64,000 bases of DNA from Minisyncoccota bacterium (GCA_021129515.1 JAJOLD010000001.1:257217-321216), one strand, 5' to 3'. Positions 4,013 to 47,701 are shown, counted from the stretch's first letter. Numbers and translations: made by a program. The notes: generated by a model not told the origin, from the sequence alone.

Positions 4013-4085
4013 TTGCCTGCCTGTTTGCCTGTGCGTATACTTACGCAAACAGATGCGTGACGCACAGGCAGGCAATCCAGAAATG
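4013..4085. repeat. imperfect palindromic element ending in ACGCACAGGCAGGCAATCCAGAAAT; the same 25-nt motif recurs at 47677-47701
   Basis: GATTGCCTGCCTG...TGTGCGT pairs with ACGCACAGGCAGGCAATC. It lies directly downstream of the stop of the minus-strand gene 4164-4520. Confidence 0.7.
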
Positions 4086-4163
4086 TAATGAGCATAGGTG
4101 CCGCAGAAGAAAAGGCTCAACACACGAGTAGTGTGCTCAGCCCTCAAAGATGCCAATCTATAA

Positions 4164-4520
4164 CTATCCTCCATGTCTGCTGAATTGGAATGTATGTTGC
4201 AAACGATTCGTTGACTCCGTCAGCGATGTCAATATAAGCACATACACATTCGCCAACACAAACAACAGTATGTGCACCAACACCATGCGGTCAAATAGCG
4301 CTACCTGCATTCCATCCGCTACTTGATACATAGCTGCCACACACACCATCCATAAAAGTACTATCACCAGAAAAACCATTACCTCACCAAAATTAAAATT
4401 GGGTGACTTATCGGCTTGTGTGGGATTCCACAGGTATTCTTTTATAAATACCACAGCCATGTAAACCGCCAATACAAAAGGTATGCCAAACTGAACTTGT
4501 GCCACGTAATCCACTGTCAT
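4164..4520 (-). CDS. hypothetical small integral membrane protein
   Basis: 118 aa with 3-4 hydrophobic helices. Its own promoter-like motif lies upstream. Confidence 0.6.
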   Translation of the reverse strand: MTVDYVAQVQFGIPFVLAVYMAVVFIKEYLWNPTQADKSPNFNFGEVMVFLVIVLLWMVCVAAMYQVADGMQVALFDRMVLVHILLFVLANVYVLILTSLTESTNRLQHTFQFSRHGG

Positions 4521-4553
4521 TAACTTTCTCCAAGTGACCTATATTCCGAGAGG

Positions 4554-4590
4554 CACAGTACCGACCACGCAATAGTTTGTCAATATAAAA
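4554..4590 (-). promoter_or_regulatory. putative promoter (minus-strand -35 TTGACA, 17-nt spacer, -10 TACTGT) for gene 4164-4520
   Basis: The minus-strand sequence is TTTTATATTGACAAACTATTGCGTGGTCGGTACTGTG. It is nearly duplicated at 4950-4985, including the conserved spacer GTGGTCGG. Confidence 0.55.
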
Positions 4591-4614
4591 ACCGGCGACT
4601 ATGCGCCGGGTTTT
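4587..4614. terminator. bidirectional rho-independent terminator (AAAACCGGCG-ACTAT-GCGCCGGGTTTT)
   Basis: A GC-rich stem flanked by an A-run and a T-run. It lies downstream of the minus-strand gene 4634-4927. Confidence 0.7.
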
Positions 4615-4633
4615 CAGATTTTTGACATTGTTT

Positions 4634-4927
4634 TCATCCTTTCAGAAGACGACTACAAGATACTATGGAGAAAATGCTATTGAGTATCATACCCAGCAGC
4701 AGCAACATCACAACAGCTATTGTAGCAGGATTTGCATCATCAGGTATCAAGAAAAGCAACGGAAAGGACACAAATATAAGCACTGTGTATGCGCTTATAA
4801 CAATTCTATCACTTACGATACTACGACCGTATATACGACGTACTGCTGCAAGAGCAAGCCTCACAACAATGTATGCTAGACCATAGCATGTTGCCAACAG
4901 AAAAAAACTATCATCCATCAGGAACAC
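4634..4927 (-). CDS. hypothetical small integral membrane protein
   Basis: 97 aa with 3 hydrophobic helices. The conserved promoter motif lies immediately upstream. Confidence 0.55.
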   Translation of the reverse strand: MFLMDDSFFLLATCYGLAYIVVRLALAAVRRIYGRSIVSDRIVISAYTVLIFVSFPLLFLIPDDANPATIAVVMLLLLGMILNSIFSIVSCSRLLKG

Positions 4928-4949
4928 TCCAAAAGGTGGCTACCAAAAT

Positions 4950-4985
4950 CACAGTACCGACCACAAATTCGTTTGTCAACATACC
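4950..4985 (-). promoter_or_regulatory. putative promoter (TTGACA, 17 nt, TACTGT), a paralogous copy of the 4554-4590 motif
   Basis: The minus-strand sequence is GGTATGTTGACAAACGAATTTGTGGTCGGTACTGTG. It overlaps the first codons of the track's rnr ORF, so the true rnr start is probably the downstream Met at ~5015. Confidence 0.55.
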
Positions 4986-7033
4986 CTCCCCCGTGTATAC
5001 TCACGAAACTAATTATGACTCAAAATAACAATACAACATATGAAGGCACCCTCCTTGTGCGCGGGAAAGGCATAGGATTTGTTTCTATTCCCGACCACGA
5101 GGAGGATATTGTGATTCCAACCGAATCACTTAATTTCGGACTGGATGGCGACAGAGTCGAAATCGAACTCCTCGACCCGAGAGCAGCTCACGCTGCACGG
5201 GCAGGAAAAAAGCCCGGCGAACGACAAGAAGGGCGCGTAGTGCGTGTTATCGAACCCGCACGTAGTGAGTTTGTGGGGCTTGTTGAAATGAAACCTACTC
5301 CCACAAGTGGGTCGGGCGGGAAAGAAAACTGGCGACTCCTCCCAGACAACCGCCGTATCCATATTCGCCCAGTACTTCCCGAGGCAACTGATACCCACAA
5401 AGGCATGAAGGTGGTGGTAACCATTGACGCATGGCAGAATCCCCATGTAGATCCTGTTGGTAGTATCACTGAAGTGCTCGGTCCTGCAGGCAACCATGAG
5501 ACTGAAATGCAAGCCATCATCCGCAGCGGCGGATTCTCAGAAAACTTCCCCGAACACATCGCTCGCGCCGGGCAAGAACTCTACGAGCAGCGTGAGGACA
5601 TTTTTACAAAAGCCATCGAAGACACCAAAGGTGACAATCCTCGCCGTCGTGATATGCGCCATGCGCCTACCTGTACCATTGACCCGGCTGACGCAAAAGA
5701 CTTTGACGACGCTATTTCGCTTGAGCTTTTAGAAAATGGACATGTGTCAGTCGGTATTCATATTGCTGACGTATCGCACTATGTGCAAGACGGCGACGAT
5801 ATCGACATGGAAGCACGTGAGCGTGGTACCTCTATATACCTTGTAGACCGTGTCATTCCGATGCTTCCTGAGGTACTTTCAAACGATCTCTGTTCACTGC
5901 GACCCCACGAAGACCGGCTCGCCTTCTCTGCCGTATTTGAAATGAATGAAAAGGGAGAGATTTTTGACGAATGGTACGGACAAACCATCATCCACTCCGA
6001 TAAACGCTTTAGCTACGAGGAAGCACAAACTGTGCTCGACAACCAAGATGGCGAGATGCTCACTGAACTCAATAGCATCATGACCATCTCCCGAGCACTC
6101 AGGAAACAACGATATAAAAATGGTGCAATTGCCTTTGAACAACCAGAGGTGCGCTTCGAACTCGATGACGACGGCAAACCAATACGTGCATACACCAAAG
6201 TACGCACTGAAACCATGCTTATGATTGAGGACCTCATGCTCCTTGCAAACCGCAAGGTCGCCGAGTATGTACACCAGTTGAGCAAAAAGCACAATCACGA
6301 AGCAGCATTCGTGTATCGTATTCACGACGAACCAAACCAGGAGAGAATTGAAGACCTCGCAACCTTCTTGCACGCACTCGGGCACGAATTTAAGACACAC
6401 CAAGGCATCGTCAGCTCAAAAGAAATCAACAAAATGCTCAAAGGGATTGAAGGTAAACCCGAAGAAGAGCTCATCAAGACTGCCACTATTCGCTCAATGG
6501 CAAAAGCAATCTACACCACCAAGAATATTGGACACTTTGGACTTGCGTTTAAGTTCTACACCCACTTCACCTCACCTATTCGTCGCTATCCTGACCTCAT
6601 GGTGCATCGTATGCTACGCAGGCACTTAGACCAATCTCCAATCAGCAAGAAGGAGCTCACTAAGTATGAGAACCTCTCTGCACAATCTTCAGAACGTGAA
6701 ATGACCGCCGTGCGTGCAGAACGTGACTCTATCAAGTACAAGCAAGTGGAATATATGCAGGGCAAGGTAGACCAAGAATTCGACGGCACCGTAACCGGCG
6801 TCACCGACTGGGGCGTATATGTTGAGGATAAAGAATCACGCGCCGAGGGTATGGTACGCCTCGCGAGTATCAAAGGTGATTATTACGAACACGATGCGAA
6901 AAAGTATCGCATCAAAGGGCAACGTACCGGACGCACCCTCTCACTCGGTGCAGACGTCCGCATCAAGCTCGTCCGTGCAGACATGGAAGAGCGACAGCTT
7001 GATTTTGAGTTAGTGGAAAAAAAGAAGAAATAA
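4973..7033 (+). CDS. rnr: ribonuclease R (RNB exoribonuclease with a C-terminal S1 domain)
   Basis: The RNB catalytic core is present, including the FTSPIRRYPDLMVHR motif. The C-terminal S1 domain reads EFDGTVTGVTDWGVYVE. The real start is probably MTQNNN at ~5015. Confidence 0.93.
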   Translation: MSTYPPPCILTKLIMTQNNNTTYEGTLLVRGKGIGFVSIPDHEEDIVIPTESLNFGLDGDRVEIELLDPRAAHAARAGKKPGERQEGRVVRVIEPARSEFVGLVEMKPTPTSGSGGKENWRLLPDNRRIHIRPVLPEATDTHKGMKVVVTIDAWQNPHVDPVGSITEVLGPAGNHETEMQAIIRSGGFSENFPEHIARAGQELYEQREDIFTKAIEDTKGDNPRRRDMRHAPTCTIDPADAKDFDDAISLELLENGHVSVGIHIADVSHYVQDGDDIDMEARERGTSIYLVDRVIPMLPEVLSNDLCSLRPHEDRLAFSAVFEMNEKGEIFDEWYGQTIIHSDKRFSYEEAQTVLDNQDGEMLTELNSIMTISRALRKQRYKNGAIAFEQPEVRFELDDDGKPIRAYTKVRTETMLMIEDLMLLANRKVAEYVHQLSKKHNHEAAFVYRIHDEPNQERIEDLATFLHALGHEFKTHQGIVSSKEINKMLKGIEGKPEEELIKTATIRSMAKAIYTTKNIGHFGLAFKFYTHFTSPIRRYPDLMVHRMLRRHLDQSPISKKELTKYENLSAQSSEREMTAVRAERDSIKYKQVEYMQGKVDQEFDGTVTGVTDWGVYVEDKESRAEGMVRLASIKGDYYEHDAKKYRIKGQRTGRTLSLGADVRIKLVRADMEERQLDFELVEKKKK

Positions 7034-7049
7034 AACAAACACCCAAAAA

Positions 7050-7086
7050 GCCTCACAAGTCGCCTACGGCAACTTGTGAGGCTTTC
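7050..7086 (+). terminator. rho-independent terminator after rnr
   Basis: GCCTCACAAGT...ACTTGTGAGGC stem followed by TTTCAC. Confidence 0.7.
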
Positions 7087-7351
7087 ACATACCATATGTA
7101 GTGTATCCCGATACCAGTATCGGTGTTACATTATATCATACTATTGTGCTGTTGATGGAGTCGTGTGTGAAAGAAAGCCCATACTCACCCGTCATCACTA
7201 CTAATGGAAAAGAAACGACACAATCCAAATACAGGAAATTTTATGGATGCGCTCTTGCTTATCGCAGCGTTACTCTTTCTGATTGTGCCGTGGCTTCGGT
7301 TCTGAACATACTCTCCAGCCCCTCCTAATACATAGAGAGACCGAGAGCAAC

Positions 7352-7552
7352 ATGCGTGCAACAGTTATTTCCATTAACCAACTCTACACACGCTTTATTT
7401 TTTCTGTTTTTTCACCATTTCTTGTATGGATTGTAGACGTGTGGTCATTTGAGATCGCCTTTTACGCTTCAGCGCTGATTTTAGGAGGACTCGCAGTGCT
7501 TGCACTTGTCTCATTACTGCATGCAATACACATTCGAGAGCAGTACGTGTAG
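7352..7552 (+). CDS. possible small 2-TM membrane protein (66 aa)
   Basis: The internal Met of ORF 7283-7552 gives MRATVISINQLYTRFIFSVFSPFLVWIV...ALILGGLAVLALVSLL. A strong terminator follows immediately. No homology support. Confidence 0.35.
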   Translation: MRATVISINQLYTRFIFSVFSPFLVWIVDVWSFEIAFYASALILGGLAVLALVSLLHAIHIREQYV

Positions 7553-7554
7553 GA

Positions 7555-7590
7555 AAAGCGCTGTGAATCAACAACGATTCACAGCGCTTT
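7555..7590. terminator. bidirectional terminator (AAAGCGCTGTGAATC-AACAACG-GATTCACAGCGCTTT) between the convergent small ORF and smc
   Basis: Perfect 15-bp stem with A/T runs on both sides. Confidence 0.8.
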
Positions 7591-7615
7591 AATATTTAGT
7601 GAGCATTTATTCATT

Positions 7616-9913: not shown

Positions 9914-9918
9914 TGTGT

Positions 9919-10475: not shown

Positions 10476-11186
10476 TTACCATCCTTTTTTCTCAATCGCT
10501 GCGGCTGCAGCATTTTGCTCTGCTTCTTGTTTTGCGCGCCCTTGCCCTTCTGCAATTTGTTCCTCTCCAAGAAAGACACCAACGGTAAAAACTCGGTCAT
10601 GGTCAGGACCTTCTTGATTTAATACTGCGTAGCTCGGGGTAATATTGACATGCTCCTGTGCAACTTCCTGGAAGCGACTTTTTGCGTCTTGCCACAGACG
10701 TTTTTCAACGATGTTTTCAGTTTGTGCAAACAGGTACTCAGCAATAAATGCTTTTGCAGCTGCATACCCTTGATCGAGATACAACGCACCAACAAGTGCC
10801 TCAAACGCATTTGCAAGAATATACTGTCGGGCACGCCCAGTATCTTTTGCCTCGCCTTTAGAAAGGAGCAAATACTCATTAACACCCATTTTTCCTGATG
10901 CTTCAGCAAGTGACACCGTATTCACCAGTGCAGCACGAATTGCAGTCAGCTCGCCTTCAGGCTTATCTGCATATTTTTCAAAAAGAAAATCAGTGACCAC
11001 AAGCTCGAGGACGGCGTCCCCTAAAAACTCATAGCGTTCGTTATGATCCTGAGTTGCTTCTCGATGTTCGTTTAAATATGAGCGATGCGTCAATGCTACC
11101 AAGAGGTGTTTTTTTTCGGTAAAGGTCACACTAATAACATCCTCAAAACGAGCAAGATGCGCATCAATATCTACAGTTTCAGTCAT
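10476..11186 (-). CDS. rnc: ribonuclease III
   Basis: Shows the RNase III signature ERYEFLGDAVLELVVTDFLF and a C-terminal dsRBD. Confidence 0.95.
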   Translation of the reverse strand: MTETVDIDAHLARFEDVISVTFTEKKHLLVALTHRSYLNEHREATQDHNERYEFLGDAVLELVVTDFLFEKYADKPEGELTAIRAALVNTVSLAEASGKMGVNEYLLLSKGEAKDTGRARQYILANAFEALVGALYLDQGYAAAKAFIAEYLFAQTENIVEKRLWQDAKSRFQEVAQEHVNITPSYAVLNQEGPDHDRVFTVGVFLGEEQIAEGQGRAKQEAEQNAAAAAIEKKGW

Positions 11187-17599: not shown

Positions 17600-17822
17600 G
17601 CTATAATAAAAACGGTAGGATAAGAGTCCGTCAGAGATTGCTGCGCTTACCAACCGCAGGTACACATGTGCTGTACGTATACACCTAATCTGACGCAAAT
17701 AACAAAGAGCCAAGTCGTCCTGATTTGGAAGCCCGGTGGAACCGCGGATAAGATAGTCATCTTAATCGTCCGAGTGAGTGTATGAAGCAACAATTTCATA
17801 CTTTCACCTGGGCGTTTTTTAC
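17600..17822 (+). promoter_or_regulatory. T-box leader (tRNA-sensing riboswitch) upstream of thrS
   Basis: T-box consensus AGCCCGGTGGAACCGCGG at 17731-17747. Candidate specifier region CTTACCAACC with ACC (Thr) followed by a purine. AGAGA motif at ~17631. U-run GGGCGTTTTTT at ~17810-17820. Confidence 0.7.
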
Positions 17823-17834
17823 TTTATAAGTACC

Positions 17835-17909
17835 GTCATCGCGAGGGACGAAGCGATCCAGAGTATAGGCGCCAAACTCCTGGATTGCTTTGCATCCGCT
17901 CGCAATGAC
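17835..17909. repeat. imperfect palindromic repeat element (GTCATCGCGAGGGACGAAGCGATCCAG ... CTGGATTGCTTTGCATCCGCTCGCAATGAC) lying between the T-box and the thrS start codon
   Basis: It is a member of the same family as the elements at 31535-31609, 47553-47701 and 4013-4085. Confidence 0.7.
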
Positions 17910-17929
17910 ACCCTAATTAACATACAACA

Positions 17930-19717
17930 GTGATTATGAGTAACTTAGAACAAAAACGACACACCCTCGCACACCTTCTCGCCGACGCGGTGCGCAAGGA
18001 ATACCCCCACGCGAAACCAACCATCGGCCCTGCAATCGAGAATGGCTTTTATTATGACTTTGATTTCTCTGGAGGTCCTAATCCTTCGGACGGACAAGCG
18101 AATGCACCCGGCGATGGAGACCTGAAGAAAATCCAAAAGCACATGAAGAAGACATTGTCTTCGTGGACAGCATTTTCCCACAAAGAAGTATCTGCAGACG
18201 ATGCTCGTGCATACTTCAAAGACAATCCGTACAAAATCGAGCTCATTGATGAACTTGAGAAAGCGGGTGAAGCAATTACGTTCTATACAGTTGGCAAAGA
18301 AGGTGCCGAATTTACCGACCTCTGCGGTGGTGGCCACGCTGAGAATCCTGCAGCAGACATTCCCACTGACAGCTTCAAGCTCGACAAAATCGCCGGTGCG
18401 TACTGGCGGGGTGACGAGAAGAACGCAATGCTCACGCGCATCTACGGTGTCGCCTTTGATACAAAAGAAGACCTCGAAGCATACGAAGTACAGCTCGAGG
18501 AAGCAAAGAAGCGCGACCACCGGAAGCTCGGCAAAGAGCTCGACCTATTCACCTTTTCAGAACTGGTCGGTTCGGGGCTGCCGCTCTTTACCCCAAAAGG
18601 AACCCTGATGCGTGACTTAATCGTTGAGAAAATCATGCACATTCAGGCAAAATATGGGTATGAAAAGGTAACGATTCCACACATTACGAAATGTGACCTA
18701 TACAAAACCTCAGGACATTGGGAGAAATTTGGAGATGAATTATTTAAAGTGAAAGGAAAGTCGGACGCTGAGTTTGTGATGAAGCCGATGAATTGCCCGC
18801 ACCATACACAAATTTTTGCGAGTAAGCCACGCTCATACAAAGAACTCCCCATCCGATACGCGGAAGCAACCATGGTGTACCGCGATGAGCAGCAGGGTGA
18901 GCTAATTGGACTTGGGCGTGTCCGTTCCATTACGCAAGATGATGGACATGTCTTTTGTACCACTGACCAAATTGAACAAGAAGTCGAAAATATTGTGCAT
19001 GTGATTAGTGAGTTTTACCAAAGCCTCGGCATGTTTACCGAAGGCAATTATTGGGTATCCCTTTCAGTACGTGACCCAGAGGAGCCTGACAAGTCCCTTG
19101 GTGGTACAGAAGTATGGGACAAAGCGGAAGCAACACTCGCTGCGATTGCAGAAAAGCTCTCACTTCCCTACACACGCGTTGAAGGAGAAGCTGCATTTTA
19201 TGGACCAAAACTCGACTTTATGTTTAAAGACGCACTGGGTCGTGAGCGGCAGCTTGCAACTGCACAGCTCGATTTTGTGATGCCGGGACGGTTTAACCTA
19301 GAATACACCGACAATGAAGGCAATAAACAGACACCGGTCATGATTCATCGCGCAATTGCCGGCTCACTTGAGCGATTCATGGCAATTATGATTGAGCATT
19401 TTGCGGGGGCCTTTCCACTCTGGCTCTCCCCTGTACAAGTTGCGGTGATTCCGGTTTCAGATGCACACAACGAATACGCACAGAGCGTCTACGATGCGCT
19501 CAAGGCTGCCGGTATTCGTACCGAGCTCGATACCTCAAATGAGTCAATGGGCAAGAAGATTCGGAATGCAAAGAAAGAGAAGCTGCCATACTTTGTTGTT
19601 ATCGGCGACAAGGAAGTCGGGGGGAAAACGATTACGGTTGAATCACGCGATGGCGAATCAACTGCAATGACTTTGAGTGCATTTACGAATCATCTTCTGA
19701 GCGAGATTGATACCTAG
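17930..19717 (+). CDS. thrS: threonyl-tRNA synthetase, short form without an N-terminal TGS domain
   Basis: Class II aaRS core with motifs CGGGHAENP and MNCPHH and a C-terminal anticodon-binding domain. Confidence 0.96.
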   Translation: MIMSNLEQKRHTLAHLLADAVRKEYPHAKPTIGPAIENGFYYDFDFSGGPNPSDGQANAPGDGDLKKIQKHMKKTLSSWTAFSHKEVSADDARAYFKDNPYKIELIDELEKAGEAITFYTVGKEGAEFTDLCGGGHAENPAADIPTDSFKLDKIAGAYWRGDEKNAMLTRIYGVAFDTKEDLEAYEVQLEEAKKRDHRKLGKELDLFTFSELVGSGLPLFTPKGTLMRDLIVEKIMHIQAKYGYEKVTIPHITKCDLYKTSGHWEKFGDELFKVKGKSDAEFVMKPMNCPHHTQIFASKPRSYKELPIRYAEATMVYRDEQQGELIGLGRVRSITQDDGHVFCTTDQIEQEVENIVHVISEFYQSLGMFTEGNYWVSLSVRDPEEPDKSLGGTEVWDKAEATLAAIAEKLSLPYTRVEGEAAFYGPKLDFMFKDALGRERQLATAQLDFVMPGRFNLEYTDNEGNKQTPVMIHRAIAGSLERFMAIMIEHFAGAFPLWLSPVQVAVIPVSDAHNEYAQSVYDALKAAGIRTELDTSNESMGKKIRNAKKEKLPYFVVIGDKEVGGKTITVESRDGESTAMTLSAFTNHLLSEIDT

Positions 19718-19783: not shown

Positions 19784-22700
19784 TTAGCCAATAGCTTTCA
19801 CTGCCTTCATCACAGCCAACTTAACGGAAGCTGTTTCGTTAGAGTACGTACCATCAATTGCTGAGGTAAGCGCTCCGATAGCTGCTTCGTACTTCGCGTC
19901 GAGGTCGGCATTTTGACCCTTCGTCGCTCGGTACTGTGCATCAAGGTCTGCTGCTGCAGTCGCAAGTGTCGCAAGTGGGTTTTCACCAAGTGTTGCGTAT
20001 GCAGCTACTACGTCACCCTTCATGATTGCTGCCGCAAGTGCGTCAGTTGACGCTGGAGTGGCAACGGGTGCTGGAGTTGGTGCTGCGGTCATCTGCACAC
20101 CTGCAGCATGCATAAGTGCTACTGCACGTTCTTTGTTGATGACTGCCCATCCATCTTCAAGTGGATGTGCTTCTTTCACTTTGTTAATAAGTGTATCCAA
20201 GAGTGCAAATCGCGCTTCAGTAGTATCAGCTTGTTCGATAATGAATCGAATTGCGTTACTTGAAAGTAGACAATTTGCTTCGTTTGCTCGGTTTTCGAGT
20301 GCTGCGATTTCGTCGGCATCCTGACCGTTGTCTGCAAATGCCACATCCTCTGTTGCCACCTCTTCTGTGTCCGCTGCATATCCAACAACTGGATTGTATG
20401 TTGCAGTTGGCAGATTTGATGGAATGTCAGTCGCTGCAGGAATCGTGTGCTTGGTCACCTCAGGAACAGTTACGCTCTGTGGCATAAATGTCTGTTCTGT
20501 TGCCGTATCATTTGGAAGTTCGATACCAAGTACTGAACTCTTTCGAATCACGAGTACGTATGCAACACCAAGACTCCAGACAATAAGCAGTGTGTAGAAG
20601 ATTGCGGTCAATGTTGGACCTGCTTCAAAACCAGTGTATGGCACGCTTCCGAGGGACACCACGAGTGGCTGTTGGTCACGTACAACACTCAAGGTTACAT
20701 CATCTTCAATTTCTACCTCGACTTTACAGTCACGATCCCTACTTCCACGGAATACGGTCATCGTATACTCAGTATCTCGCGTTGGCTTGAGGGTAATAGA
20801 ACCGTCATCCTCGTCAACATCTTTATCTTCTGATCGTTCGGTGTCGATAATCACGTTTCCGCGGTTATCTTCAATCTTCATGTCATTTGTTCGGGCGTTG
20901 TCCCAGGTAAGGGTAATTTCTTCACCCTTGGTAATCTTGGTGTCTGAAATTTCAAGTTCACAACGAGGTGAGCTTGAACCACCACCGCCACCACCAGAAG
21001 TGGTATCAACTGATACGGTACACGTCACTTCATCGGTACCATCGGTAGCAGTAAGCGTGTAGGTGGTATCGCTGTTTACGGTAACGGTTTCATCACCATC
21101 AACAGCTACCGCACCAATACCTTGGTCAATAGACACACTCGTTGCACCAGTTGTGTTCCACTTGAGTTCTACTGATGAACCTTCATGAACACTGCTGTCA
21201 CTCACCGTAAATGCATCACAACGTAGTTCTGAAACCGGTTCATCTTCAATAGTTACCGTATCATCACAGGTCACAGTCTTACCATGTCCTGTTGCAGTCA
21301 ATGTATATGTTGTATCGGTAGTTGGTGCAGATGTAGTAGAACCATCAGTTGTGACAGAACCAATACCTTGGTCAATAGATACCGTATCAGCATTTACCGT
21401 TGACCACGTGAGCGTCACGTCGTCACCCTTGGTAATCGTGTCGGGAGTCACGGCAAGTGTACACTGTGGTTCAGGATTTGGCGTTGCAACAATAATTTTT
21501 TCTTCACATGTTACCTGACCGCCAGCGCCCGTTGCAGTAAGGGTATAGGTTTTTGTTTCTGTTACGTTGAGTACCTTGCTTCCATCGGGATCTACCGTAC
21601 CAACCCCTTGGTCAATAGAGACATCAGTAGCGTTTGTTGTTTCCCACGTGAAGGTCACGTCGCCACCACCAATAGGAAGTGATGCTGGAATACCAGCAAA
21701 TGCATCACAGGTAGGTGCAGGTACTTCGATTTTTTCAAACATCGCACATACTGGTTCTACGCTGTTTGCTGATGTGGTGTCTGGGTATTTTGCATGTATT
21801 GCTTTAATACCAGTAATTGGCTGTGTGAGCATATACTTTGTTTCGACAACCTGCTCACGCTGTGCTTCACGCACAGTATCAGCAAGATCACCAATTGCAT
21901 CAGATGCTTGTACACGAGTACCGTTCACAAAGAATCCAAGGTACCACCGTTCATCTGGCTGTGAGACTTGCTCACGACCGTTGTACCCATCCCATGAGAA
22001 GAGGGTAATTTTGTAGCTCCCAGCATCAAGATTCACATTTCGAAGCACAGTTGTCGCTTGTGAAGAATCTTGGTCGCTGCGGATGCGATTATTAAATGAA
22101 ACAACAGTTCGGTCAGCATTGCCCGCAAATGGACATGCTGGACGTACCGGATTTTCTGGCACCTCGACAACCACCTCAGTTGTACAGGTTTTGCTTCCTG
22201 CTGCATTTTTTGCAGTGAGAGTGTACGTTGTGTCGGTTGTTGGTGCTACGGTTGTCGTACCGTCTTCAGCAACAACACCAACGCCATTATCAATCATAAC
22301 TTCGGTTGCGTCGGTAGTCTCCCAAGTCAACGTTGCTGACGCACCTTTCGTAATTTTTGATGGCTGTGCGTCAAATGCATCACATGTTGGCAATGGATCT
22401 GGAATGCGTTCAACCATTGCACACACTGGCCAAAGACTATTTGGACTTGTGTTGTCTACCCATGCTGCATGTACTGCTTTTACACCGGTAATTGTGTCGG
22501 TAATAGTAAGTGCATTGTTCACCTTTTGCTTTCGCTGTGCAGTTTCTACACCATCAGCAAGATCAGCTGTTGAACCAGACTCAGCAAGTACGTTTGCACC
22601 ATTGAGGAACACCAAACGGTATTGCTCTCGATTCTGTCCAGTTACTGCTGTGCGCCCAACATACCCGTCGTACGCAAAGAGGTGTACTTTGTAGTCTCCC

Positions 22701-23041
22701 GCAGGAAGATTGGTTGACTCAACATCAGTTTCAGGATTATTGAAATTCTTTGAGCTGTAAATACGGTCAGTGAATTCAAAAACTGTTTTAGTATCACTAT
22801 CCTTAAATGGACATGCCGGAGGATCAATAAATTGTGTTGATGCAGATGCAACTGCCACCTCCATGGTCAATCCAGTTGTGTCAGTGCCCACATTTCCTAG
22901 TGATGGTAGCATCACAAAAACCGCAAGCAATGCACTGATAAGCGCAATAGCGGTAAATGCAACAGTACCAATATGTGTGTGTTTGATAATTGTATTCATG
23001 ATAATGTTTGTTGTTTCTAAATAATCCCACCTGCAATGCAC
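19784..23041 (-). CDS. giant repeat-containing surface protein (1085 aa) with an LPXTG-like sorting segment in mid-protein
   Basis: N-terminal signal/TM, then two tandem ~230-aa repeats (ACPF...YK..LF..DGY.GR...PVCAM.E.I..P.PTCDAF), then five Ig-like ~90-aa repeats (TLTW.T.NA..V.ID.G.G.V...TTDTTYTLTA). It continues with a Gly/Ser stretch, the segment SLGSVPYTGFEAG, a TM helix PTLTAIFYTLLIVWSLGVAYVLVI, then RK, and a ~290-aa tail. The likely start is the Met at ~22999 (MNTIIKH...). Confidence 0.85.
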   Translation of the reverse strand: MHCRWDYLETTNIIMNTIIKHTHIGTVAFTAIALISALLAVFVMLPSLGNVGTDTTGLTMEVAVASASTQFIDPPACPFKDSDTKTVFEFTDRIYSSKNFNNPETDVESTNLPAGDYKVHLFAYDGYVGRTAVTGQNREQYRLVFLNGANVLAESGSTADLADGVETAQRKQKVNNALTITDTITGVKAVHAAWVDNTSPNSLWPVCAMVERIPDPLPTCDAFDAQPSKITKGASATLTWETTDATEVMIDNGVGVVAEDGTTTVAPTTDTTYTLTAKNAAGSKTCTTEVVVEVPENPVRPACPFAGNADRTVVSFNNRIRSDQDSSQATTVLRNVNLDAGSYKITLFSWDGYNGREQVSQPDERWYLGFFVNGTRVQASDAIGDLADTVREAQREQVVETKYMLTQPITGIKAIHAKYPDTTSANSVEPVCAMFEKIEVPAPTCDAFAGIPASLPIGGGDVTFTWETTNATDVSIDQGVGTVDPDGSKVLNVTETKTYTLTATGAGGQVTCEEKIIVATPNPEPQCTLAVTPDTITKGDDVTLTWSTVNADTVSIDQGIGSVTTDGSTTSAPTTDTTYTLTATGHGKTVTCDDTVTIEDEPVSELRCDAFTVSDSSVHEGSSVELKWNTTGATSVSIDQGIGAVAVDGDETVTVNSDTTYTLTATDGTDEVTCTVSVDTTSGGGGGGSSSPRCELEISDTKITKGEEITLTWDNARTNDMKIEDNRGNVIIDTERSEDKDVDEDDGSITLKPTRDTEYTMTVFRGSRDRDCKVEVEIEDDVTLSVVRDQQPLVVSLGSVPYTGFEAGPTLTAIFYTLLIVWSLGVAYVLVIRKSSVLGIELPNDTATEQTFMPQSVTVPEVTKHTIPAATDIPSNLPTATYNPVVGYAADTEEVATEDVAFADNGQDADEIAALENRANEANCLLSSNAIRFIIEQADTTEARFALLDTLINKVKEAHPLEDGWAVINKERAVALMHAAGVQMTAAPTPAPVATPASTDALAAAIMKGDVVAAYATLGENPLATLATAAADLDAQYRATKGQNADLDAKYEAAIGALTSAIDGTYSNETASVKLAVMKAVKAIG

Positions 23042-31534: not shown

Positions 31535-31609
31535 CTGGATTGCTTCGGCTCTACCCGCAATGACGGACGCCCGAAGGGCGTCATTGCGAGTGGATGCGAA
31601 GCAATCCAG
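31535..31609. repeat. nested long imperfect palindromic element (CTGGATTGCTTCG ... GACGCCC-GAA-GGGCGTC ... CGAAGCAATCCAG)
   Basis: Outer 13-bp perfect inverted repeat, an inner GTCATTGCGAG/CGCAATGAC pair, and an innermost 7-bp stem. It is homologous to the elements at 17835-17909 and 47611-47660. Confidence 0.75.
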
Positions 31610-31802
31610 GGTCATGTTGCCTTGCTCAACTTTTTGTCACAGTGGATTCGGCGTCCAACTTTAGTTCACTATTCTGAGCGTCACGGATTGCTAAGCACTC
31701 TCTAGATTCGGCGTCCGCCAGTAATTCGCTGACGCTCATAACTAGCACCTGCCCAGGTTCACTGGTTCGGCGCTATAGGTAAGCGCCTCACATCGTGAAC
31801 CT

Positions 31803-31827
31803 TTCGAATCTGAGAGGTGGCTCAGAG
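31803..31827 (+). other. 25-nt inverted copy of the tRNA-Thr 3' end (T-loop through acceptor and discriminator: TTCGAATCTGAGAGGTGGCTCAGAG)
   Basis: Identical to the reverse complement of 31879-31903. The two copies flank the tRNA terminator hairpin. Confidence 0.8.
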
Positions 31828-31878: not shown

Positions 31879-31883
31879 CTCTG

Positions 31884-31957
31884 AGCCACCTCTCAGATTC
31901 GAACTGAGGACCTACGGTTTACAAAACCGTTGCTCTAACCAACTGAGCTAAGGTGGC
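31884..31957 (-). tRNA. tRNA-Thr (anticodon UGU); CCA is not encoded
   Basis: Manual fold: acceptor GCCACCT/AGGTGGC, D-arm GCTC-AGTTGGTTA-GAGC, anticodon arm ACGGT-TTTGTAA-ACCGT, variable loop AGGTC, T-arm CTCAG-TTCGAAT-CTGAG, discriminator U. Confidence 0.88.
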
Positions 31958-32055: not shown

Positions 32056-32080
32056 CTCTAACCAACTGAGCTAAGCTGGC
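32056..32080 (-). other. tRNA 5'-half fragment (GCCAGCTTAGCTCAGTTGGTTAGAG: acceptor 5' strand plus D-arm) with no cognate 3' half
   Basis: It matches positions 1-25 of the neighbouring tRNA-Thr except at 1-2 bases. It is followed by unrelated hairpin sequence. Confidence 0.7.
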
Positions 32081-41241: not shown

Positions 41242-41708
41242 TAATTATCTGATTACACCCAATAATACCATGCACACGCAGCAAAATAGGCGAGAACCAG
41301 TTTGAAAAGACTCGGAGTACAAAGATTTCAAAAATTCGAGCAGAAAAACATATAAAATTTCGTCTCTTACTGAGACCGTTTAGGTTGACGCCGCTCACGC
41401 GGCTGGCAACCTCTTGCGCCAGTACGTAGGTACTGGCTCACCATATCGAGATACAGTGATAAGTTCCGAGGGAACTTTGCAAGACCTTTAGAGATATTTT
41501 GACGAAGGAGAAATATCCTAAAGGTGTACCGCTTCCGTAGGAAGAGAAGATTTTAGAAGTTTTATCTCTTACAGATACTGTGCAGGTCGTATGATAATGT
41601 TCGTTCCTCACACTATCGACGACCTCTTGCGAACGTGTCTGTACACGTTTTCACCGAATTTTGGGAATCGACTACCCGAAACAGTTCTTCACTTAAATTT
41701 CACTGTAT

Positions 41709-43440: not shown

Positions 43441-43443
43441 ATA

Positions 43444-43796: not shown

Positions 43797-44783
43797 CTAC
43801 CCTGCTACTTTCTTCACCGTTTCAATAATGGTCTTTGTATCCATGCCATAGTGCGCAATAAGTTCATCAGGGTCTCCCGATTGTCCGAACTTATCATGAA
43901 CACCAAGCTTCACCACGCGGGTTGGGCGTTCCTCTGAGAGGTATTCAGACACTGCTGACCCCACACCACCTGCAACCTGATGTTCTTCTACCGTCACTAA
44001 TGCATCGTGCTCTTCTGCAAAGGCTTTGATTGCTTCCGTATCAAGTGGCTTAATCGTCGCAAGGTTCATCACTGACACGCCAATACCCTGTTCATTGAGT
44101 TGCTTACCTGCCATGAGTGCATTATGGAGTACCACTCCACAAGAAATAATACCCACTTTCTTTGCATGTGTACCATCACGCCGCATATACACCTCAGCTT
44201 TGCCAATAGCAAACGGTGAACCTGGTGTCGTCACCACCGGCACTCCCTCACGTGCGAGGCGAATATATACCGGTCCTTCATGCTCAGCAGCTGCGAGTGT
44301 AGCTCTCCGTGCTTCATGCACATCACACGGTACCAAGACAGTCATACGTGGTACCACACGCATAATTGCAATGTCCTCAATCGCCTGGTGCGTTGCTCCA
44401 TCAGGACCAACCGACACCCCCGAGTGTGCACCAATAATCTTCACATTCGCATTGTTATACGCAATCGTGGTGCGTACTTGCTCCCAGCTACGCCCTGGAG
44501 AAAACATCGCATACGACGCAATAAACGGAATCTTGCCCATGGCAGCCATACCCGACGCCACCGACGCCATAGACTGCTCACCAATACCTACCTGCACAAA
44601 TCGATCAGGGAAGGCGTCTGCAAAAATGTTTGTGCGTGTTGAACCAGTGAGGTCAGCAGAGAGCGCCACGACACGCTCGTCCTTCTCACCCGCTTCTTTG
44701 AGCCCCTCACCATACCCGTTACGGTTTGGTACCCGCTCAATGTTGTCATCAAAAATATTTGGATTTATATGGTCTGGTGTCAT
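43797..44783 (-). CDS. transketolase, C-terminal subunit (split transketolase)
   Basis: Pyrimidine-binding and C-terminal domains of transketolase. It lies adjacent to the N-terminal-subunit gene. Confidence 0.92.
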   Translation of the reverse strand: MTPDHINPNIFDDNIERVPNRNGYGEGLKEAGEKDERVVALSADLTGSTRTNIFADAFPDRFVQVGIGEQSMASVASGMAAMGKIPFIASYAMFSPGRSWEQVRTTIAYNNANVKIIGAHSGVSVGPDGATHQAIEDIAIMRVVPRMTVLVPCDVHEARRATLAAAEHEGPVYIRLAREGVPVVTTPGSPFAIGKAEVYMRRDGTHAKKVGIISCGVVLHNALMAGKQLNEQGIGVSVMNLATIKPLDTEAIKAFAEEHDALVTVEEHQVAGGVGSAVSEYLSEERPTRVVKLGVHDKFGQSGDPDELIAHYGMDTKTIIETVKKVAG

Positions 44784-44784
44784 A

Positions 44785-45771
44785 TTATGCTCCTGGCTTA
44801 ATCTGGCCTCCTAACGTACGAAGTCGACGCAATGCTTCGTCTGCCTGTTCTCCCTTTGGCACTCGTTCTTCAGGCCCCTTGCCCGGAGGATTACCGTGCC
44901 ACCTAAAGTCGCGCTCAAAAACATCAACCCCCTTCGATGGGATCGTGTGTGCAATAATCACCGAGGGTTGACTATATACCGCTTGTGCCTTTCCGATCGC
45001 ATCGTTTACCGACCGAATGTTGTGTCCATCTACCTCCTGCACATCCCAGTTAAAGGCAGCCAGCTTTTCCGCGAGTGGTTCAAGCGGCATCACATCTTTC
45101 GTGTATCCATCAATCTGAATACCGTTGCGGTCTACTATCACAATAAGGTTATGGAGCTTCTCCTTGCCGGCATGCATAAACGCCTCCCACATCTGCCCAG
45201 CATTGATTTCCCCATCACCCGTGAGGCAGTAGAAATACCTTGAGGAGTACGGATTCTCCATACGCTCCGCAATCGCCATACCGACGGCTTGTGAGAGTCC
45301 TGAGCCCAAGGGACCAGAACTTGTTTCAATACCCGGCAATACTTCTCGGTGTGGATGTCCCTGAAGACGCGTACCAAACTTGCGCAAGGTCAACAACTCT
45401 TCTTCCGGGAAATACCCTGCATGTGCCATAGTAGCGTAAAGCACCGGGCAAATATGCCCGTTTGAGAGAATCAGCCGGTCACGCTCTTCCCAAAAGGGAT
45501 TCTTAGGGTCGTGTTTTAATACTTCAAAATAGAGGAGGGTAAAGATATCTGCCATGCCCAAAGGCCCAGCGGTGTGTCCACTTTTAGCCTCAAAGAGCAT
45601 CTCGATAATACTTTGACGAATCTCATTCGCTTTCGCTTCAAGCTCATGAACCTCCGCGTCGGTAAGATAGTGCATATGCCTTAAGTATATAGTATGAGAA
45701 GCAAGTATGAGTATGATGATGTTAAAAACACAAGACCGGTCAACTGGACCGGTCTTCATCAGATGTGTCAT
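44785..45771 (-). CDS. transketolase, N-terminal (TPP-binding) subunit
   Basis: TPP-binding motifs GHTAGPLGMAD... and GDGEINAGQMWEA. Confidence 0.92.
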   Translation of the reverse strand: MTHLMKTGPVDRSCVFNIIILILASHTIYLRHMHYLTDAEVHELEAKANEIRQSIIEMLFEAKSGHTAGPLGMADIFTLLYFEVLKHDPKNPFWEERDRLILSNGHICPVLYATMAHAGYFPEEELLTLRKFGTRLQGHPHREVLPGIETSSGPLGSGLSQAVGMAIAERMENPYSSRYFYCLTGDGEINAGQMWEAFMHAGKEKLHNLIVIVDRNGIQIDGYTKDVMPLEPLAEKLAAFNWDVQEVDGHNIRSVNDAIGKAQAVYSQPSVIIAHTIPSKGVDVFERDFRWHGNPPGKGPEERVPKGEQADEALRRLRTLGGQIKPGA

Positions 45772-46253
45772 ACACCATATTTATGCTGCCCAGCAATAGT
45801 GGGTGCCCACGCAACTGATTCTATTGGAGTAGTTGCCACTTCCACTGACTTTTCGAGTAAGCGTATTAATACATATGCAATCGAAGTACAGAATAAAGCA
45901 AAATTCGGATTCTCTCTGTCATACTGTTCTACACACACTTCAACATAAATAACATCATCTTGTTGTAACATACTCGCATTGACGACCCAAATTTTATCTG
46001 GGTCATCATACCCAATCTTCTTTCCCTTGGATTTGATCGTCTCTACAAGTGACTTGGGTATGGGCTTATCTGAGTAGACCTTCACTACAGGCATTGCTAT
46101 ATCCTCAAGAACAATTCTTTTCGACCATAGCACATACTGTTGTATATGGATAGATGTTTTATTAAAATCGTACGAGGTAATCAAATTCTCGATATACCTC
46201 TTGTGGATCGCTTGCTTTGAGGATTGCTGAGCCTGAGACGAAGTGCTGTGCAC
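45768..46253 (-). CDS. hypothetical protein; the true start is probably the internal Met at ~46094
   Basis: As given, the track ORF would overlap rpe by ~90 nt. Starting at MPVVKVYSD... removes the overlap. Confidence 0.4.
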   Translation of the reverse strand: MHSTSSQAQQSSKQAIHKRYIENLITSYDFNKTSIHIQQYVLWSKRIVLEDIAMPVVKVYSDKPIPKSLVETIKSKGKKIGYDDPDKIWVVNASMLQQDDVIYVEVCVEQYDRENPNFALFCTSIAYVLIRLLEKSVEVATTPIESVAWAPTIAGQHKYGV

Positions 46254-46830
46254 CTGCTTCGTAGAGGCGTGGAAGTGTGTCTTTGTTTACCGAGCCATCG
46301 ATACTAATCTGAAGGTCGGGGTGCGCAGCAAGCAATGTCTTGATACGATCAATCACTCGCTCGTCAAACGGTTGCCCTTGTGAACCAATCTGAGCAATGC
46401 CCATAAGTTGTACGAAGTCGATTCGGTCGAGGTACTGGATGAGTTCCTCAAGCAGCGTGTCGTTGTTTATTGAAAAGCCAAGCCCATAGTTGTGGGCGGC
46501 GTGGTGTTCAAGGATTGTCTCGATAGCTGCTTCGTCCTTCACACTTTCAAGATGCACCACCATGCGTTCTACACCCGCGCCGTAATACGCCGCAATCACT
46601 TCTTCCGGATGTTCTATCATGAGGTCAATTTCGACATCAAACTTCTCAGTTATCTCAGCAAGCTGCGCAATGTCTTCACCCGCGCCATAGGGCCATGAGG
46701 TAAAGGGTACAAACTTTCCATCGACAACATCGATTTGCACCGCTTCTGCAAATGGCTCAACGACTTTGAGTGTCTCCTTGAGATGCTCAAATGTTTTGGG
46801 AATGATTGCTGGAAGTATTTTCTGTTTCAT
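46162..46830 (-). CDS. rpe: ribulose-phosphate 3-epimerase
   Basis: IDVVDGKFVP, DLMIEHPEE, MGIAQIGSQGQPF and SIDGSVN motifs. Confidence 0.93.
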   Translation of the reverse strand: MKQKILPAIIPKTFEHLKETLKVVEPFAEAVQIDVVDGKFVPFTSWPYGAGEDIAQLAEITEKFDVEIDLMIEHPEEVIAAYYGAGVERMVVHLESVKDEAAIETILEHHAAHNYGLGFSINNDTLLEELIQYLDRIDFVQLMGIAQIGSQGQPFDERVIDRIKTLLAAHPDLQISIDGSVNKDTLPRLYEAGAQHFVSGSAILKASDPQEVYREFDYLVRF

Positions 46831-46857
46831 AGACGTTATGCGTTATATGCAGAGATA

Positions 46858-47298
46858 CTAAAACTTATTGATGCGGCGCACATGCCGTTCATCACCAGGA
46901 AACTGGATAGTGAGCCACACGCGGACGACTTCTTTTGCTTCCTCGGGAGTCACAAAGCGCGCACCAAGCGAAAGAACGTTTGCATTGTTGTGTTCACGCG
47001 AGAGTGTGATTATTTCTGGTTGTCCACCGTAGTACACAGTTGCCCGCACACCAGGTACTCGATTTGCAACCATTGCCTCACCCTGTCCTGAGCCACCAAG
47101 CACAAGAGCTCGGTCTTCTTCTGGATTTGCGGCAACTTTTGTTGCAGCAATACTGACAAAATCGGGATAATCATCAACGGCGTTAAACGAATGTGCACCA
47201 CAGTCCTCTGCCACAAGTCCAAGCTCAGTCACCACAAAATCCTTAAGTATATTCTTAAGTTCAAATCCTGCGTGGTCGGTGGCGAAATAAATCTTCAT
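46858..47298 (-). CDS. rpiB: ribose-5-phosphate isomerase B
   Basis: MKIYFATDHAGFELK ... CGAHSF ... matches RpiB/LacAB. Confidence 0.93.
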   Translation of the reverse strand: MKIYFATDHAGFELKNILKDFVVTELGLVAEDCGAHSFNAVDDYPDFVSIAATKVAANPEEDRALVLGGSGQGEAMVANRVPGVRATVYYGGQPEIITLSREHNNANVLSLGARFVTPEEAKEVVRVWLTIQFPGDERHVRRINKF

Positions 47299-47552
47299 AT
47301 ATTAGAAGGTAGTGCGTAGTTAGTAGTACGTAGAACCTACTTGTTAATCATAACATTTTTGTCACCAATGCTGTCATGATGAATTTAGTTCAACATCTTA
47401 AGAGATTCTGAAACACACCACAAGGGCATTACCATTATTTCTGCTGCGCTCTAAATTCAGAATAGTCGTTCCACTCCTTTCTTCATTCATAATTCCCTCC
47501 GGTCATAAGAAAAATGGGTCAGTCCAGAATGACCGATGCTTTGATTGCCCAT

Positions 47553-47701
47553 ACCTGGATTGCTTTGTCATTCCACTCCGTTTCATTCCTCGCAATAACG
47601 CTCTTTCAGAACGAAAGACGCCGCCCGTAGGGCGGCGTCTTTGCGAGTGCTTGCGCGAAGCCTGTCTGCGTACGGACACGCACAGGCAGGCAATCCAGAA
47701 A
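47553..47701. repeat. composite palindromic-repeat region downstream of gap
   Basis: Contains CCTGGATTGCTTTGTCATTCC...CCTCGCAATAACG, a perfect terminator hairpin (47615-47639), GTCTTTGCGAGTGCTTGCGCGAAGC (homologous to 31585-31605), and ACGCACAGGCAGGCAATCCAGAAAT (identical to 4061-4085). Confidence 0.7.
47615..47639 (-). terminator. terminator hairpin (AGACGCCGCCC-GTA-GGGCGGCGTCT) downstream of gap
   Basis: Perfect 11-bp GC-rich stem. Confidence 0.75.

Follow-up and report, generated by a model that had tools for sequence, protein, structure and literature searches.

Intergenic palindromic repeats in a Paceibacteria genome are probably REPs of the CGTC-tagged superfamily

GTAG REPs and REPINs are reportedly mobilised by RAYT tyrosine transposases, and descriptions of REPIN-RAYT systems portray them as specific to a lineage and inherited vertically. 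The CGTC-tagged REPs, with families CGTC-1 to CGTC-4, were described by Di Nocera, De Gregorio & Rocco (2013, BMC Genomics 14:522, PMC3733652) and include Neisseria dRS3 (listed as CGTC-1) and Rickettsia RPE-4 and RPE-6. They are defined there by a CGTC or TGTC tag (CCTC being allowed), a stem in which complementary A-T residues occupy the first and second positions, and a tail of three unpaired bases fitting CCA. In the parts of that description used here, dimers mostly have their tags outside, the TT arrangement being rare; the repeats are intergenic, mainly between unidirectional or convergent ORFs; the four published families have a perfect 8- to 9-bp stem with a 4- to 5-nt loop; and the superfamily has no linked transposase and no known dedicated one. 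Variable loops are given for Bradyrhizobium CGTC-1, and bulged units may have escaped detection (PMC3733652).

We analysed a 64-kb stretch of DNA (the window) from a Paceibacteria MAG (Patescibacteria). The preliminary description of this window had read a set of palindromic repeats at four loci as REP/MITE-like elements or as RNA modules. The REP-like part of that reading was borne out by the defining parts of CGTC-tagged REPs and by the lack of three of the four loci in relatives, while neither the MITE part nor an RNA module as the primary nature of the elements was upheld. We conclude, with a probability of about 0.78, that the elements belong among the REP repeats of the CGTC-tagged superfamily, as asymmetric units of ~28 to 46 nt that occur singly or as inverted pairs and that were gained in this lineage. 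The window contains three unit pairs (loci 2 to 4) and one degenerate derivative (locus 1), as listed in Table 1.

Table 1. Repeat units and spacers at the four loci (positions in the window; bit scores and E values are from covariance model R1)
Feature	Position	Strand	Description
Locus 1, derived palindrome	4008-4084		ATTGC 4013-4017, GCAAT 4072-4076, CCAG tail kept
Locus 2, left unit	17834-17861	+	CGTC-ATCGC-GA-GGGAC-GA-A-GCGAT-CCAG; 39.1 bits, E = 6e-9
Locus 2, spacer	17862-17879		18 nt between the two CCAG tails
Locus 2, right unit	17880-17910	-	TGTC tag, inner hairpin GCGGATGC; 40.3 bits
Locus 3, left unit	31535-31565	-	CGTC tag, inner part GGGTAGAGCC; 39.1 bits
Locus 3, spacer	31566-31578		With the right-unit tag forms hairpin GACGCCC-GAA-GGGCGTC (31566-31582)
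Locus 3, right unit	31579-31609	+	CGTC tag, inner hairpin GTGGATGC; 42.6 bits
Locus 4, left unit	47555-47600	-	CGTT tag, long inner part GGAATGAAACGGAGTGGAATGAC; 29.7 bits, E = 3e-6
Locus 4, spacer	47601-47635		Most of an 11-bp GC hairpin (47616-47640) engaging the right-unit CGTC tag
Locus 4, right unit	47636-47698	+	CGTC-TTTGC-GA-GTGCTTGCGC-GA-A-GC[...]GCAAT-CCAG; 14.7 bits, E = 0.08

The nested inverted repeats claimed for the four loci were confirmed at all of them. CTGGATTGC occurs six times in the window, each time at one of these loci, against 0.61 copies expected from shuffled sequences, and none of 100 shuffles reached six; GTCATTGCGAG, with at most one mismatch, gave nine matches against 1.45 expected. 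Folding of the whole elements, a check that the preliminary description had proposed, gave stable structures on either strand (-37 to -68 kcal/mol, z = -4.8 to -8.6). Covariance model R1, trained mostly on units from other organisms but also on the four window units of loci 2 and 3, returned exactly six units from the window, only at loci 2 to 4, the two units of locus 4 being outside the training set. Under nearest-neighbour DNA parameters, in an energy model without terms for G-A/GNA mini-hairpin stability, single units did not exceed shuffled sequences in folding stability (-2 to -4 kcal/mol, z of ~0). Because single-unit folding is weak, the unit hairpin rests on covariation together with the known stability of such mini-hairpins.

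The unit follows the pattern (C/T)GTC-ATTGC-GA-(variable hairpin)-GA-A-GCAAT-CCAG. It is asymmetric, about 28 to 46 nt long, and comprises a foot stem of 5 bp (ATTGC/GCAAT) flanked by two unpaired ends, a (C/T)GTC tag and a CCA(G) tail, with an interior of tandem G-A juxtapositions, one extra A and an inner hairpin that is free in sequence and in length (3 to >20 nt). In the short form, nine positions on the 5' side (ATTGC-GA-GC) are arranged around a GNA turn, two of them being G-A, and one A is bulged. Units are single or in inverted pairs, and a pair can form one long hairpin. The window units carry the tags CGTC (four), TGTC (one) and CGTT (one), and five of the six have an ATTGC/GCAAT or ATCGC/GCGAT foot stem, the other having TTTGC/GCAAT. 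Foot-stem pairing reaches 98.7% in alignment A2, a near-invariance to which the search patterns themselves contribute (ascertainment). The CCAG tail follows all six units and is also found at locus 1. At pattern-free positions of units elsewhere, the tag has GT in 95 to 96%, preceded by C (65%) or T (27%), and 156 units from viral contigs showed CGT(C) in 63% and TGT(C) in 25%; in the tail, AATCC is followed by A in 62% and then by G in 53%. The inner hairpin covaries, with a terminal stem length of 2.1 versus 0.53 in shuffles and a covariation score of 0.114 versus 0.058 (none of 500 shuffles was as high, and slid controls were at most 0.036). Double changes were seen in five of the six inner pairs.

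Locus 2 is a dimer with its tags outside ("HH" in the terminology of Di Nocera) and lies where the preliminary description had placed it, between the thrS T-box terminator, whose T-run ends near 17822, and the thrS ATG at 17936. The T-box itself scored low in Rfam (23.6 bits versus a gathering score of 93), and its GGTGGAACCGCG box, terminator and position are kept in three relatives. In the thrS leaders of relatives L125, L126 and L128 the terminator leads directly to the ATG, a block of ~95 nt being missing. The foot stem of the left unit exhibits a compensatory T>C / A>G double change by which pairing within the unit is kept and pairing with the partner unit is broken. The spacer of tags-outside dimers elsewhere is typically 20 to 22 nt. 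The ATCGC/GCGAT foot variant was also observed in L210.

Loci 3 and 4 are dimers with their tags inside ("TT") and GC hairpin spacers. The right units of loci 2 and 3 are 92% identical, five flanking bases included, and the GGATGC-type inner hairpin, present in two of the six window units, was found in none of 540 units from other organisms. A repeat copy had been claimed at the tRNA locus; locus 3 in fact lies ~275 nt away from tRNA-Thr. At locus 4, GGAATGAAACGGAGTGGAATGAC is a duplicated version of the GGAATGAAATGAC variant, which was observed in a viral contig (L063), and the 3' strand of the right-unit foot stem is split by a 28-nt hairpin of the locus 1 type (47662-47689). This right unit ends 4 nt short of the gap stop codon (47703-47705, minus strand).

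Locus 1 is without the GA/GA motif and the CGTC tag, has a 54-nt CCTGCCTGTGCGT-type structure in place of the inner hairpin and gave no match to model R1; it is linked to the units solely by the foot, the tail and a hairpin in common with locus 4. It folds at -37 / -41 kcal/mol (z = -5.8 / -6.7). The identity of its 3' 25 nt, four flank bases included, with part of locus 4 was correctly noted before, with coordinates one base off in each case (the true positions are 4060-4084 and 47678-47702), and the placement directly after a minus-strand stop codon holds for the gap copy and fails for locus 1. Among ORFs of at least 60 aa, the one closest to locus 1 ends at 4164, and a 66-aa ORF running across the element is probably spurious.

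All four loci are intergenic, between genes of the same direction. Loci 1, 2 and 4 are absent at the orthologous sites of relatives: locus 1 has no counterpart upstream of rpsP in relatives L258 to L260, and the gap-rpiB spacer, 404 nt long here, is represented in relatives by 7 nt, 21 nt or an 11-nt overlap. No unit was found in about 150 kb of relatives' DNA from nine loci. These comparisons indicate that the copies were gained specifically in this lineage, at intergenic sites of the Paceibacteria genome. Signs of copying within the genome are the inner hairpin and flanking bases common to two of the six units and the 25-mer common to loci 1 and 4.

Units of the same type were found in >120 genome stretches of at least eight phylum-level groups, mostly Alphaproteobacteria, with Bacteroidota, Melainabacteria, Bacillota and another Parcubacteria MAG among the other hosts, as well as in >120 viral contigs and on plasmids of Novosphingobium, Methylobacterium, Methylosinus and Aulosira. 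Identical units occur in genomes of 30 to 72% G+C, one 30-mer being identical in three contigs of 34%, 59% and 65% G+C, and they lie beside unrelated genes, including phage structural genes, the only recurrent neighbours of units elsewhere. The arrangements elsewhere were 69 tags-outside dimers, 4 tags-inside dimers, 6 direct dimers and 117 singletons; the window has one HH and two TT pairs, the latter being the type that is rare elsewhere.

Judged on the published description of their parts, the CGTC-tagged REPs and the window elements are alike in the unpaired CGTC/TGTC tag, the A-T/T-A stem start and the unpaired CCA tail; in occurring as singletons and as inverted dimers that, elsewhere, mostly have tags outside, with small spacer hairpins; and in an intergenic position between unidirectional genes, a patchy occurrence in several phyla with its centre in Alphaproteobacteria and the lack of a linked transposase. 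Our own back-translation of the R. palustris peptide VIAGLDPAIH (PMC3733652 supplement) suggests that the CGTC-3 unit shares CGTC-ATTGC...GCAAT-CCA with the window unit. Relative to the repeats as described, the window stem has a bulged A and consists of 5 bp, G-A and 2 to 6 bp, and the inner hairpin varies in length rather than closing a perfect stem with a short loop; the Paceibacteria host is outside the five phyla listed, and two of the three pairs have tags inside.

GTAG REPs and REPINs are likewise short, imperfectly palindromic repeats bearing an unpaired tag of four nucleotides, in which inverted doublets give long hairpins, no target is duplicated and variants are amplified within a genome. 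Membership among them was rejected on the tag, which is CGTC/TGTC and not GTAG/GTGG. In contrast to REPIN-RAYT systems, near-identical units of the window type are common to several phyla, and no RAYT was found in the window or beside units elsewhere. The REP/BIME elements of E. coli resemble locus 4 in its 3' UTR position between the stop codon and a terminator-like hairpin, and also form stable hairpins in operon spacers; the window elements, however, are dispensable in relatives.

By analogy with the GTAG REPs, on which HUH tyrosine transposases act, units would spread as single-stranded DNA hairpins, and a trans-acting enzyme would recognise the conserved foot, tag and tail. We put this joint proposal forward tentatively, at somewhat less than even odds. 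Such spread would leave no target duplication, and the enzyme would be encoded elsewhere than next to the repeats. The mechanism is an analogy only, because neither our searches nor the literature yielded a mobilising enzyme. No transposase domain was detected in ~50 window ORFs, no RAYT gene (for a Y1 HUH transposase) in the window and the adjoining 8.5 kb on its left, and no parental IS or transposase in the window or among the neighbours of units elsewhere; an IS200 TnpA query, a weak test, had no match in the window or the viral loci.

The elements could instead be primarily RNA modules that protect the 3' end of the gap mRNA, serve RNase III or other processing, or modulate thrS after the T-box. 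All four loci, lying between same-direction genes, would be transcribed, the pairs fold into RNA hairpins of high stability, locus 4 begins 4 nt past the gap stop codon and ahead of a terminator-like hairpin (47536-47517), and an RNase III gene is present in the window (10476-11186). E. coli REPs in 3' UTRs stabilise the upstream mRNA, and those that lie up to about 15 nt from a stop codon reduce expression of the gene before them. We nevertheless consider this explanation improbable. Single units after ORF ends were 27 sense versus 28 antisense, and therefore the G-A-rich strand and its pyrimidine-rich complement are used equally; the elements are not required, because relatives lack them at the same genes; and identical units recur beside unrelated genes across widely differing G+C contents. 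A scan for intrinsic terminators (GC-rich hairpin plus U-run) passed none of the REP hairpins at the four loci, its one match being the terminator-like hairpin beside, and outside, the locus 4 REP. In Rfam, the tRNA was the sole real match in the window and no family corresponded to the repeats, and permissive scans of locus 3 and six unit-rich loci gave chance microRNA matches only.

Less probable still is that the repeats are immobile double-stranded protein sites, either targets of site-specific insertion or integration (by IS110-type recombinases or phage integrases) or sites of gyrase or nucleoid binding. Filamentous prophages are reported to integrate at the dRS3 repeats of Neisseria, and REPs serve as insertion targets of IS110/IS1111-family elements. 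The listing of dRS3 among CGTC-1 members (PMC3733652), a conserved foot, tag and tail around a free inner part, which fits protein recognition, and the rearranged tRNA-Thr region adjoining locus 3 all agree with such a role, but it leaves the origin of copies at new places unexplained, the window has no recombinase or IS, and the inner hairpin covaries in a way that suggests a folded single strand and speaks against duplex recognition. The elements also share small size, palindromic ends and intergenic polymorphism between relatives with bacterial MITEs (e.g., Correia/NEMIS). As MITEs they would be deletion derivatives of a DDE-type IS that move by cut and paste, with CTGGATTGC/GCAATCCAG as terminal inverted repeats. 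This reading, to which we give hardly any weight, is already contradicted: direct repeats in the flanks of 124 dimers from other genomes equalled the shuffled control, so that the target-site duplications looked for were not seen; where tags are outside and CCAG ends face each other, the commonest arrangement, the would-be terminal repeats lie inside; 117 units are single; and no related IS or IS-derived ends were found. CTGGATTGC/GCAATCCAG were rejected as terminal repeats: they correspond to the foot of the stem and the CCA tail in a unit that is asymmetric.

As CGTC-tagged REPs, the pairs in the gap 3' UTR and the thrS leader would still be transcribed, and as a side effect they could alter mRNA stability or translation; secondary RNA effects at these two sites are possible. 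The repeats themselves would then be of a common kind, and what is unusual would be their host, an ultra-small Patescibacteria genome in which they lie between housekeeping genes.

The four palindromic loci of the window (loci 1 to 4) belong to an already known superfamily of repetitive palindromic (REP) sequences, the CGTC-tagged one, and add to it a member from a host group new to it. The nested inverted repeats noted in the preliminary description were present at all four loci, and folding energies of the whole elements ran from -37 to -68 kcal/mol whichever strand was folded, with z between -4.8 and -8.6. The word CTGGATTGC occurred six times in the window, every time at one of the four loci (0.61 expected), and GTCATTGCGAG, with at most one mismatch, occurred nine times against 1.45 expected. 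The repeated part was found to be asymmetric rather than a symmetric palindrome, with the order (C/T)GTC - ATTGC - GA - inner hairpin - GA - A - GCAAT - CCAG, comprising a tag, a foot stem closed around the inner hairpin, and a tail. Six such units were detected in the window, at loci 2 to 4, with model R1, a covariance model built mostly from units of other organisms. Locus 1, where neither the tag nor the G-A motif survives, was not detected by this model. The 25-mer shared by loci 1 and 4, which includes four flanking bases, is real, with coordinates corrected as in the table; it had been described as immediately following a stop codon at both places, which holds for the copy next to gap and not directly for the copy at locus 1.

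Positions of the repeat loci and of other features of the window
Feature	Position	Strand	Description
Locus 1	4008-4084		Hairpin of the type interrupting the right unit of locus 4, between ATTGC and GCAAT-CCAG
Locus 2	17834-17910		Dimer, tags outside, 18-nt spacer
Locus 3	31535-31609		Two units, tags inside; GC-rich hairpin between them, engaging the right unit's tag
Locus 4	47555-47698		Two units arranged as at locus 3; long inner part of left unit is a duplicated form of a variant found in a viral contig; right unit interrupted by a 28-nt hairpin
Shared 25-mer	4060-4084; 47678-47702		Loci 1 and 4
66-codon ORF	3974-4174	minus	Crosses the entire locus 1 palindrome; probably spurious
1085-aa ORF	19784-23041	minus	74-nt DNA repeats every ~240-246 nt (21108-21667)
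GGATTCGGCGTCC pair	31645-31657; 31706-31718		Direct repeat located between locus 3 and the tRNA-Thr region; may be a leftover of further REP-related sequence
tRNA-Thr(TGT) gene	31883-31957	minus	
Last 25 nt of tRNA-Thr(TGT)	31879-31903		Perfect inverted copy 51 nt downstream (31803-31827); terminator-like hairpin between
Copy of tRNA-Thr(TGT) 5' end	about 32056-32080		25 nt, one mismatch, ~100 nt upstream
Three-hairpin motif	41340-41445; 57916-58020	minus	Two copies, ~85 nt
31-codon ORF	47401-47496	minus	MNEERSGTTILNLERSRNNGNALVVCFRIS; GGAGGG ahead
Terminator-like hairpin	47536-47517		Directly before the 31-codon ORF
Short ORF	61216-61677	minus	Degenerate 27-84-nt repeats (TTTGC...GCTTTCGCTTT on plus strand)

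Di Nocera, De Gregorio and Rocco (2013, PMC3733652) divided REPs into GTAG- and CGTC-tagged superfamilies. In their description, CGTC REPs have an unpaired CGTC tag (or TGTC or CCTC), stems beginning with A-T pairs and a CCA tail, occur mostly as dimers with the tags outside, and are distributed over five phyla, chiefly Alphaproteobacteria; Neisseria dRS3 and Rickettsia RPE-4 and RPE-6 are among the members, and the superfamily is said to "apparently lack a dedicated transposase" (PMC3733652). The window unit agrees with CGTC REPs in tag, stem start, tail, dimer arrangement and location, and the REP-like reading in the preliminary description was right. It differs in that its stem is interrupted and its inner hairpin variable, compared with the published stem of 8-9 bp and loop of 4-5 nt. 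Variable loops are mentioned in the paper for Bradyrhizobium CGTC-1, and its authors state that their search may have missed bulged units (PMC3733652). Rfam contained no family for the unit, no paper connecting REPs with Patescibacteria was found in the literature searched, and literature searches using the DNA words of the repeats, or the peptides that they encode in spurious ORFs, yielded nothing beyond primers and unrelated matches.

The inner part between the fixed GA...GA is free in sequence, yet closes as a hairpin, with a terminal stem length of 2.1 compared to 0.53 in shuffles. When a two-helix model was evaluated on an alignment of 77 sequences, 82.9% of the cells were paired (75.7% in shuffles), and the covariation score was 0.114 against 0.058, a value as high being reached in 0 of 500 shuffles. 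Double changes were observed at five of the six inner pairs, and slid controls stayed at or below 0.036. In roughly one third of the units from other organisms the inner part is GCGNAGC; d(GCGAAGC) was reportedly described by Hirao and colleagues in the 1990s as an exceptionally stable DNA mini-hairpin. The foot stem was near-invariant in sequence, an effect due in part to the search patterns, in which this stem was fixed; rare compensated variants occurred (ATCGC/GCGAT, ATGGC/GCCAT and ACTGC/GCAGT). The left unit of locus 2 carries one such variant, which keeps pairing within the unit and breaks pairing with the partner unit. The tag and tail were conserved at positions that the search pattern left unspecified. 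Single units folded no better than shuffled sequence under nearest-neighbour DNA folding with standard parameters, which give no credit to sheared G-A pairs or GNA turns.

The window has a G+C content of 46% and contains housekeeping genes only (including trmD, rpsP, rnr, smc, rnc, nusB, rnhB, dnaE, thrS, gyrB, tsf, rpsB, prfA, tkt, rpe, rpiB, gap, gatB, obg, secA and murB). For its ThrS, GAPDH and RNase R, the nearest proteins carry the names Paceibacterota, Pacebacteria, Nomurabacteria or Kaiserbacteria, and metagenome contigs of the BRAZ22-1 samples (SAMN16557391) were 99.6-100% identical to the window. Two contigs of the same population, L256 and L257, are 99.9% identical with two gaps; rpoB is one gene call in L256 and two in L257, a split that reflects either an assembly frameshift or variation within the population. 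Synteny with relatives is broken around the tRNA-Thr(TGT) region, and the repeats there look like scars of integration or rearrangement at a tRNA gene. The two copies of the three-hairpin motif have a core 83% identical; read on the minus strand, one precedes a 2-hydroxyacid dehydrogenase gene by ~120 nt and the other precedes obg by ~235 nt. RNAalifold on these copies gave 28 pairs, seven of them kept via changes on both sides, and no Rfam family matched; the motif is a candidate structured RNA or leader. The 1085-aa ORF has no Pfam match and probably encodes a large repetitive surface protein; at its position relatives have a 650-aa protein, likewise with no Pfam match. The short ORF near the right end of the window would encode a low-complexity protein rich in lysine and alanine.

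Gene order around three of the loci was kept in relatives with marker proteins 70-81% identical. In the thrS leader of three relatives, the T-run of the T-box terminator is followed by the ATG within about 10-25 nt; the window has an additional block of ~95 nt, which is the REP dimer. The T-box itself scored only 23.6 bits in Rfam, yet is conserved in the relatives. Similarly, the gap-rpiB spacer in three relatives is 7 nt, 21 nt or an 11-nt overlap, compared with 404 nt in the window, where it contains the REP composite, a terminator-like hairpin and the 31-codon ORF. Upstream of rpsP, at the place of locus 1, relatives have ordinary terminator-like hairpins. No unit was found in relatives across nine loci totalling ~150 kb, and no additional unit in the 8.5 kb beyond the left edge of the window. 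Two window units share an inner hairpin and flanking bases, and this inner hairpin was present in 0 of 540 units elsewhere; together with the 25-mer of loci 1 and 4, it points to copying within this genome. Shared AGGG and AAAT flanks suggest that the segment moved may be a dimer plus flank.

Outside this lineage, the unit was found on at least 120 viral contigs among the matches listed (pattern with 18 specified bases) and, with a 23-base pattern, at more than 120 places among GTDB species genomes, each on its own stretch. The majority of the latter were Alphaproteobacteria (Bradyrhizobium, Sphingomonadales, Rhodospirillales, Hyphomicrobiales, Rickettsiales, Micavibrio), with further hosts in Gamma- and Betaproteobacteria, Bacteroidota, Melainabacteria, Chitinispirillales, Opitutaceae, Bacillota, one Deltaproteobacteria MAG and one Candidatus Parcubacteria MAG (L238, 47 bits). 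BLAST added plasmids (Novosphingobium, Methylobacterium, Methylosinus and Aulosira) and prophages of Helicobacter canis. The loci carrying it ranged from 30 to 72% G+C. A 30-mer of loci 2 and 3 matched exactly in only three unrelated metagenome contigs (34%, 59% and 65% G+C), and a 22-mer from the module of loci 1 and 4 had no match among GTDB species genomes. One IMG/VR contig of 10.4 kb (L076) carried more than eight units in uniform orientation, each within a longer conserved repeat (...CCCTCAATGTAAGTACGGAGTAACTTCACCCC...), that is, a composite repeat family around the unit.

The classification together with the evidence of gain is the best-supported statement. The loci had also been proposed to be MITE-like, or else RNA structural elements such as RNase III or terminator modules; neither proposal was supported. 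Dimers in other genomes lacked target-site duplications, which argues against a DDE-type MITE and is compatible with HUH-type or recombination-based spread; the ACC...ACC flanking locus 2, considered as such a duplication, gained no support from a family-wide test. Single units downstream of ORF ends were sense in 27 cases and antisense in 28, arguing against a transcript-strand-specific role, and the terminator reading was rejected since no REP hairpin resembles a terminator. There was no transposase among the window genes, and an approximate IS200-type query, a weak test, had no match in the window or the viral loci. ORFs between units and recurrent neighbours of units elsewhere were phage capsid, portal, terminase and tail genes and no transposases; one IS481/IS3-like ORF, on contig L132, was an isolated case.

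By analogy with GTAG REPs and their RAYTs, the units may spread as single-stranded hairpins, acted on in trans by an enzyme that would recognise the hairpin at its foot, tag and tail; we give this a probability of roughly 35-40%. A bolder proposal, which we consider improbable, is that the ATTGCGAG...GAAGCAAT unit is one horizontally travelling hairpin that Alphaproteobacteria, Bacteroidota, Melainabacteria, Bacillota, Patescibacteria and phages have in common, nearly base for base. No element-encoded or dedicated transposase would be needed; spread would rely on a factor present in all its hosts, such as an enzyme of replication or repair that acts on G-A/GNA mini-hairpins of single-stranded DNA, and phages would be the vehicles between phyla.

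For annotation, the repeats account for spurious small ORFs (such as the one across locus 1), contig breaks in repeats (contig L004 begins within locus 4) and, in Patescibacteria MAGs, intergenic spacers that are inflated. For biology, CGTC REPs have reached an ultra-small, streamlined genome and inserted at sensitive places, a T-box leader and the formerly tight gap-rpiB junction; judging by E. coli REPs, these copies may plausibly affect how gap and thrS are expressed. The classification as a known kind of repeat is unaffected by these implications. If the unit is indeed a travelling hairpin moved by a host-common factor, its recent gain in a Patescibacteria genome would leave only a very small set of genes in which to seek that factor. 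Being poor in genes and having clearly gained copies recently, such a host is convenient for seeking the mobiliser of CGTC REPs.
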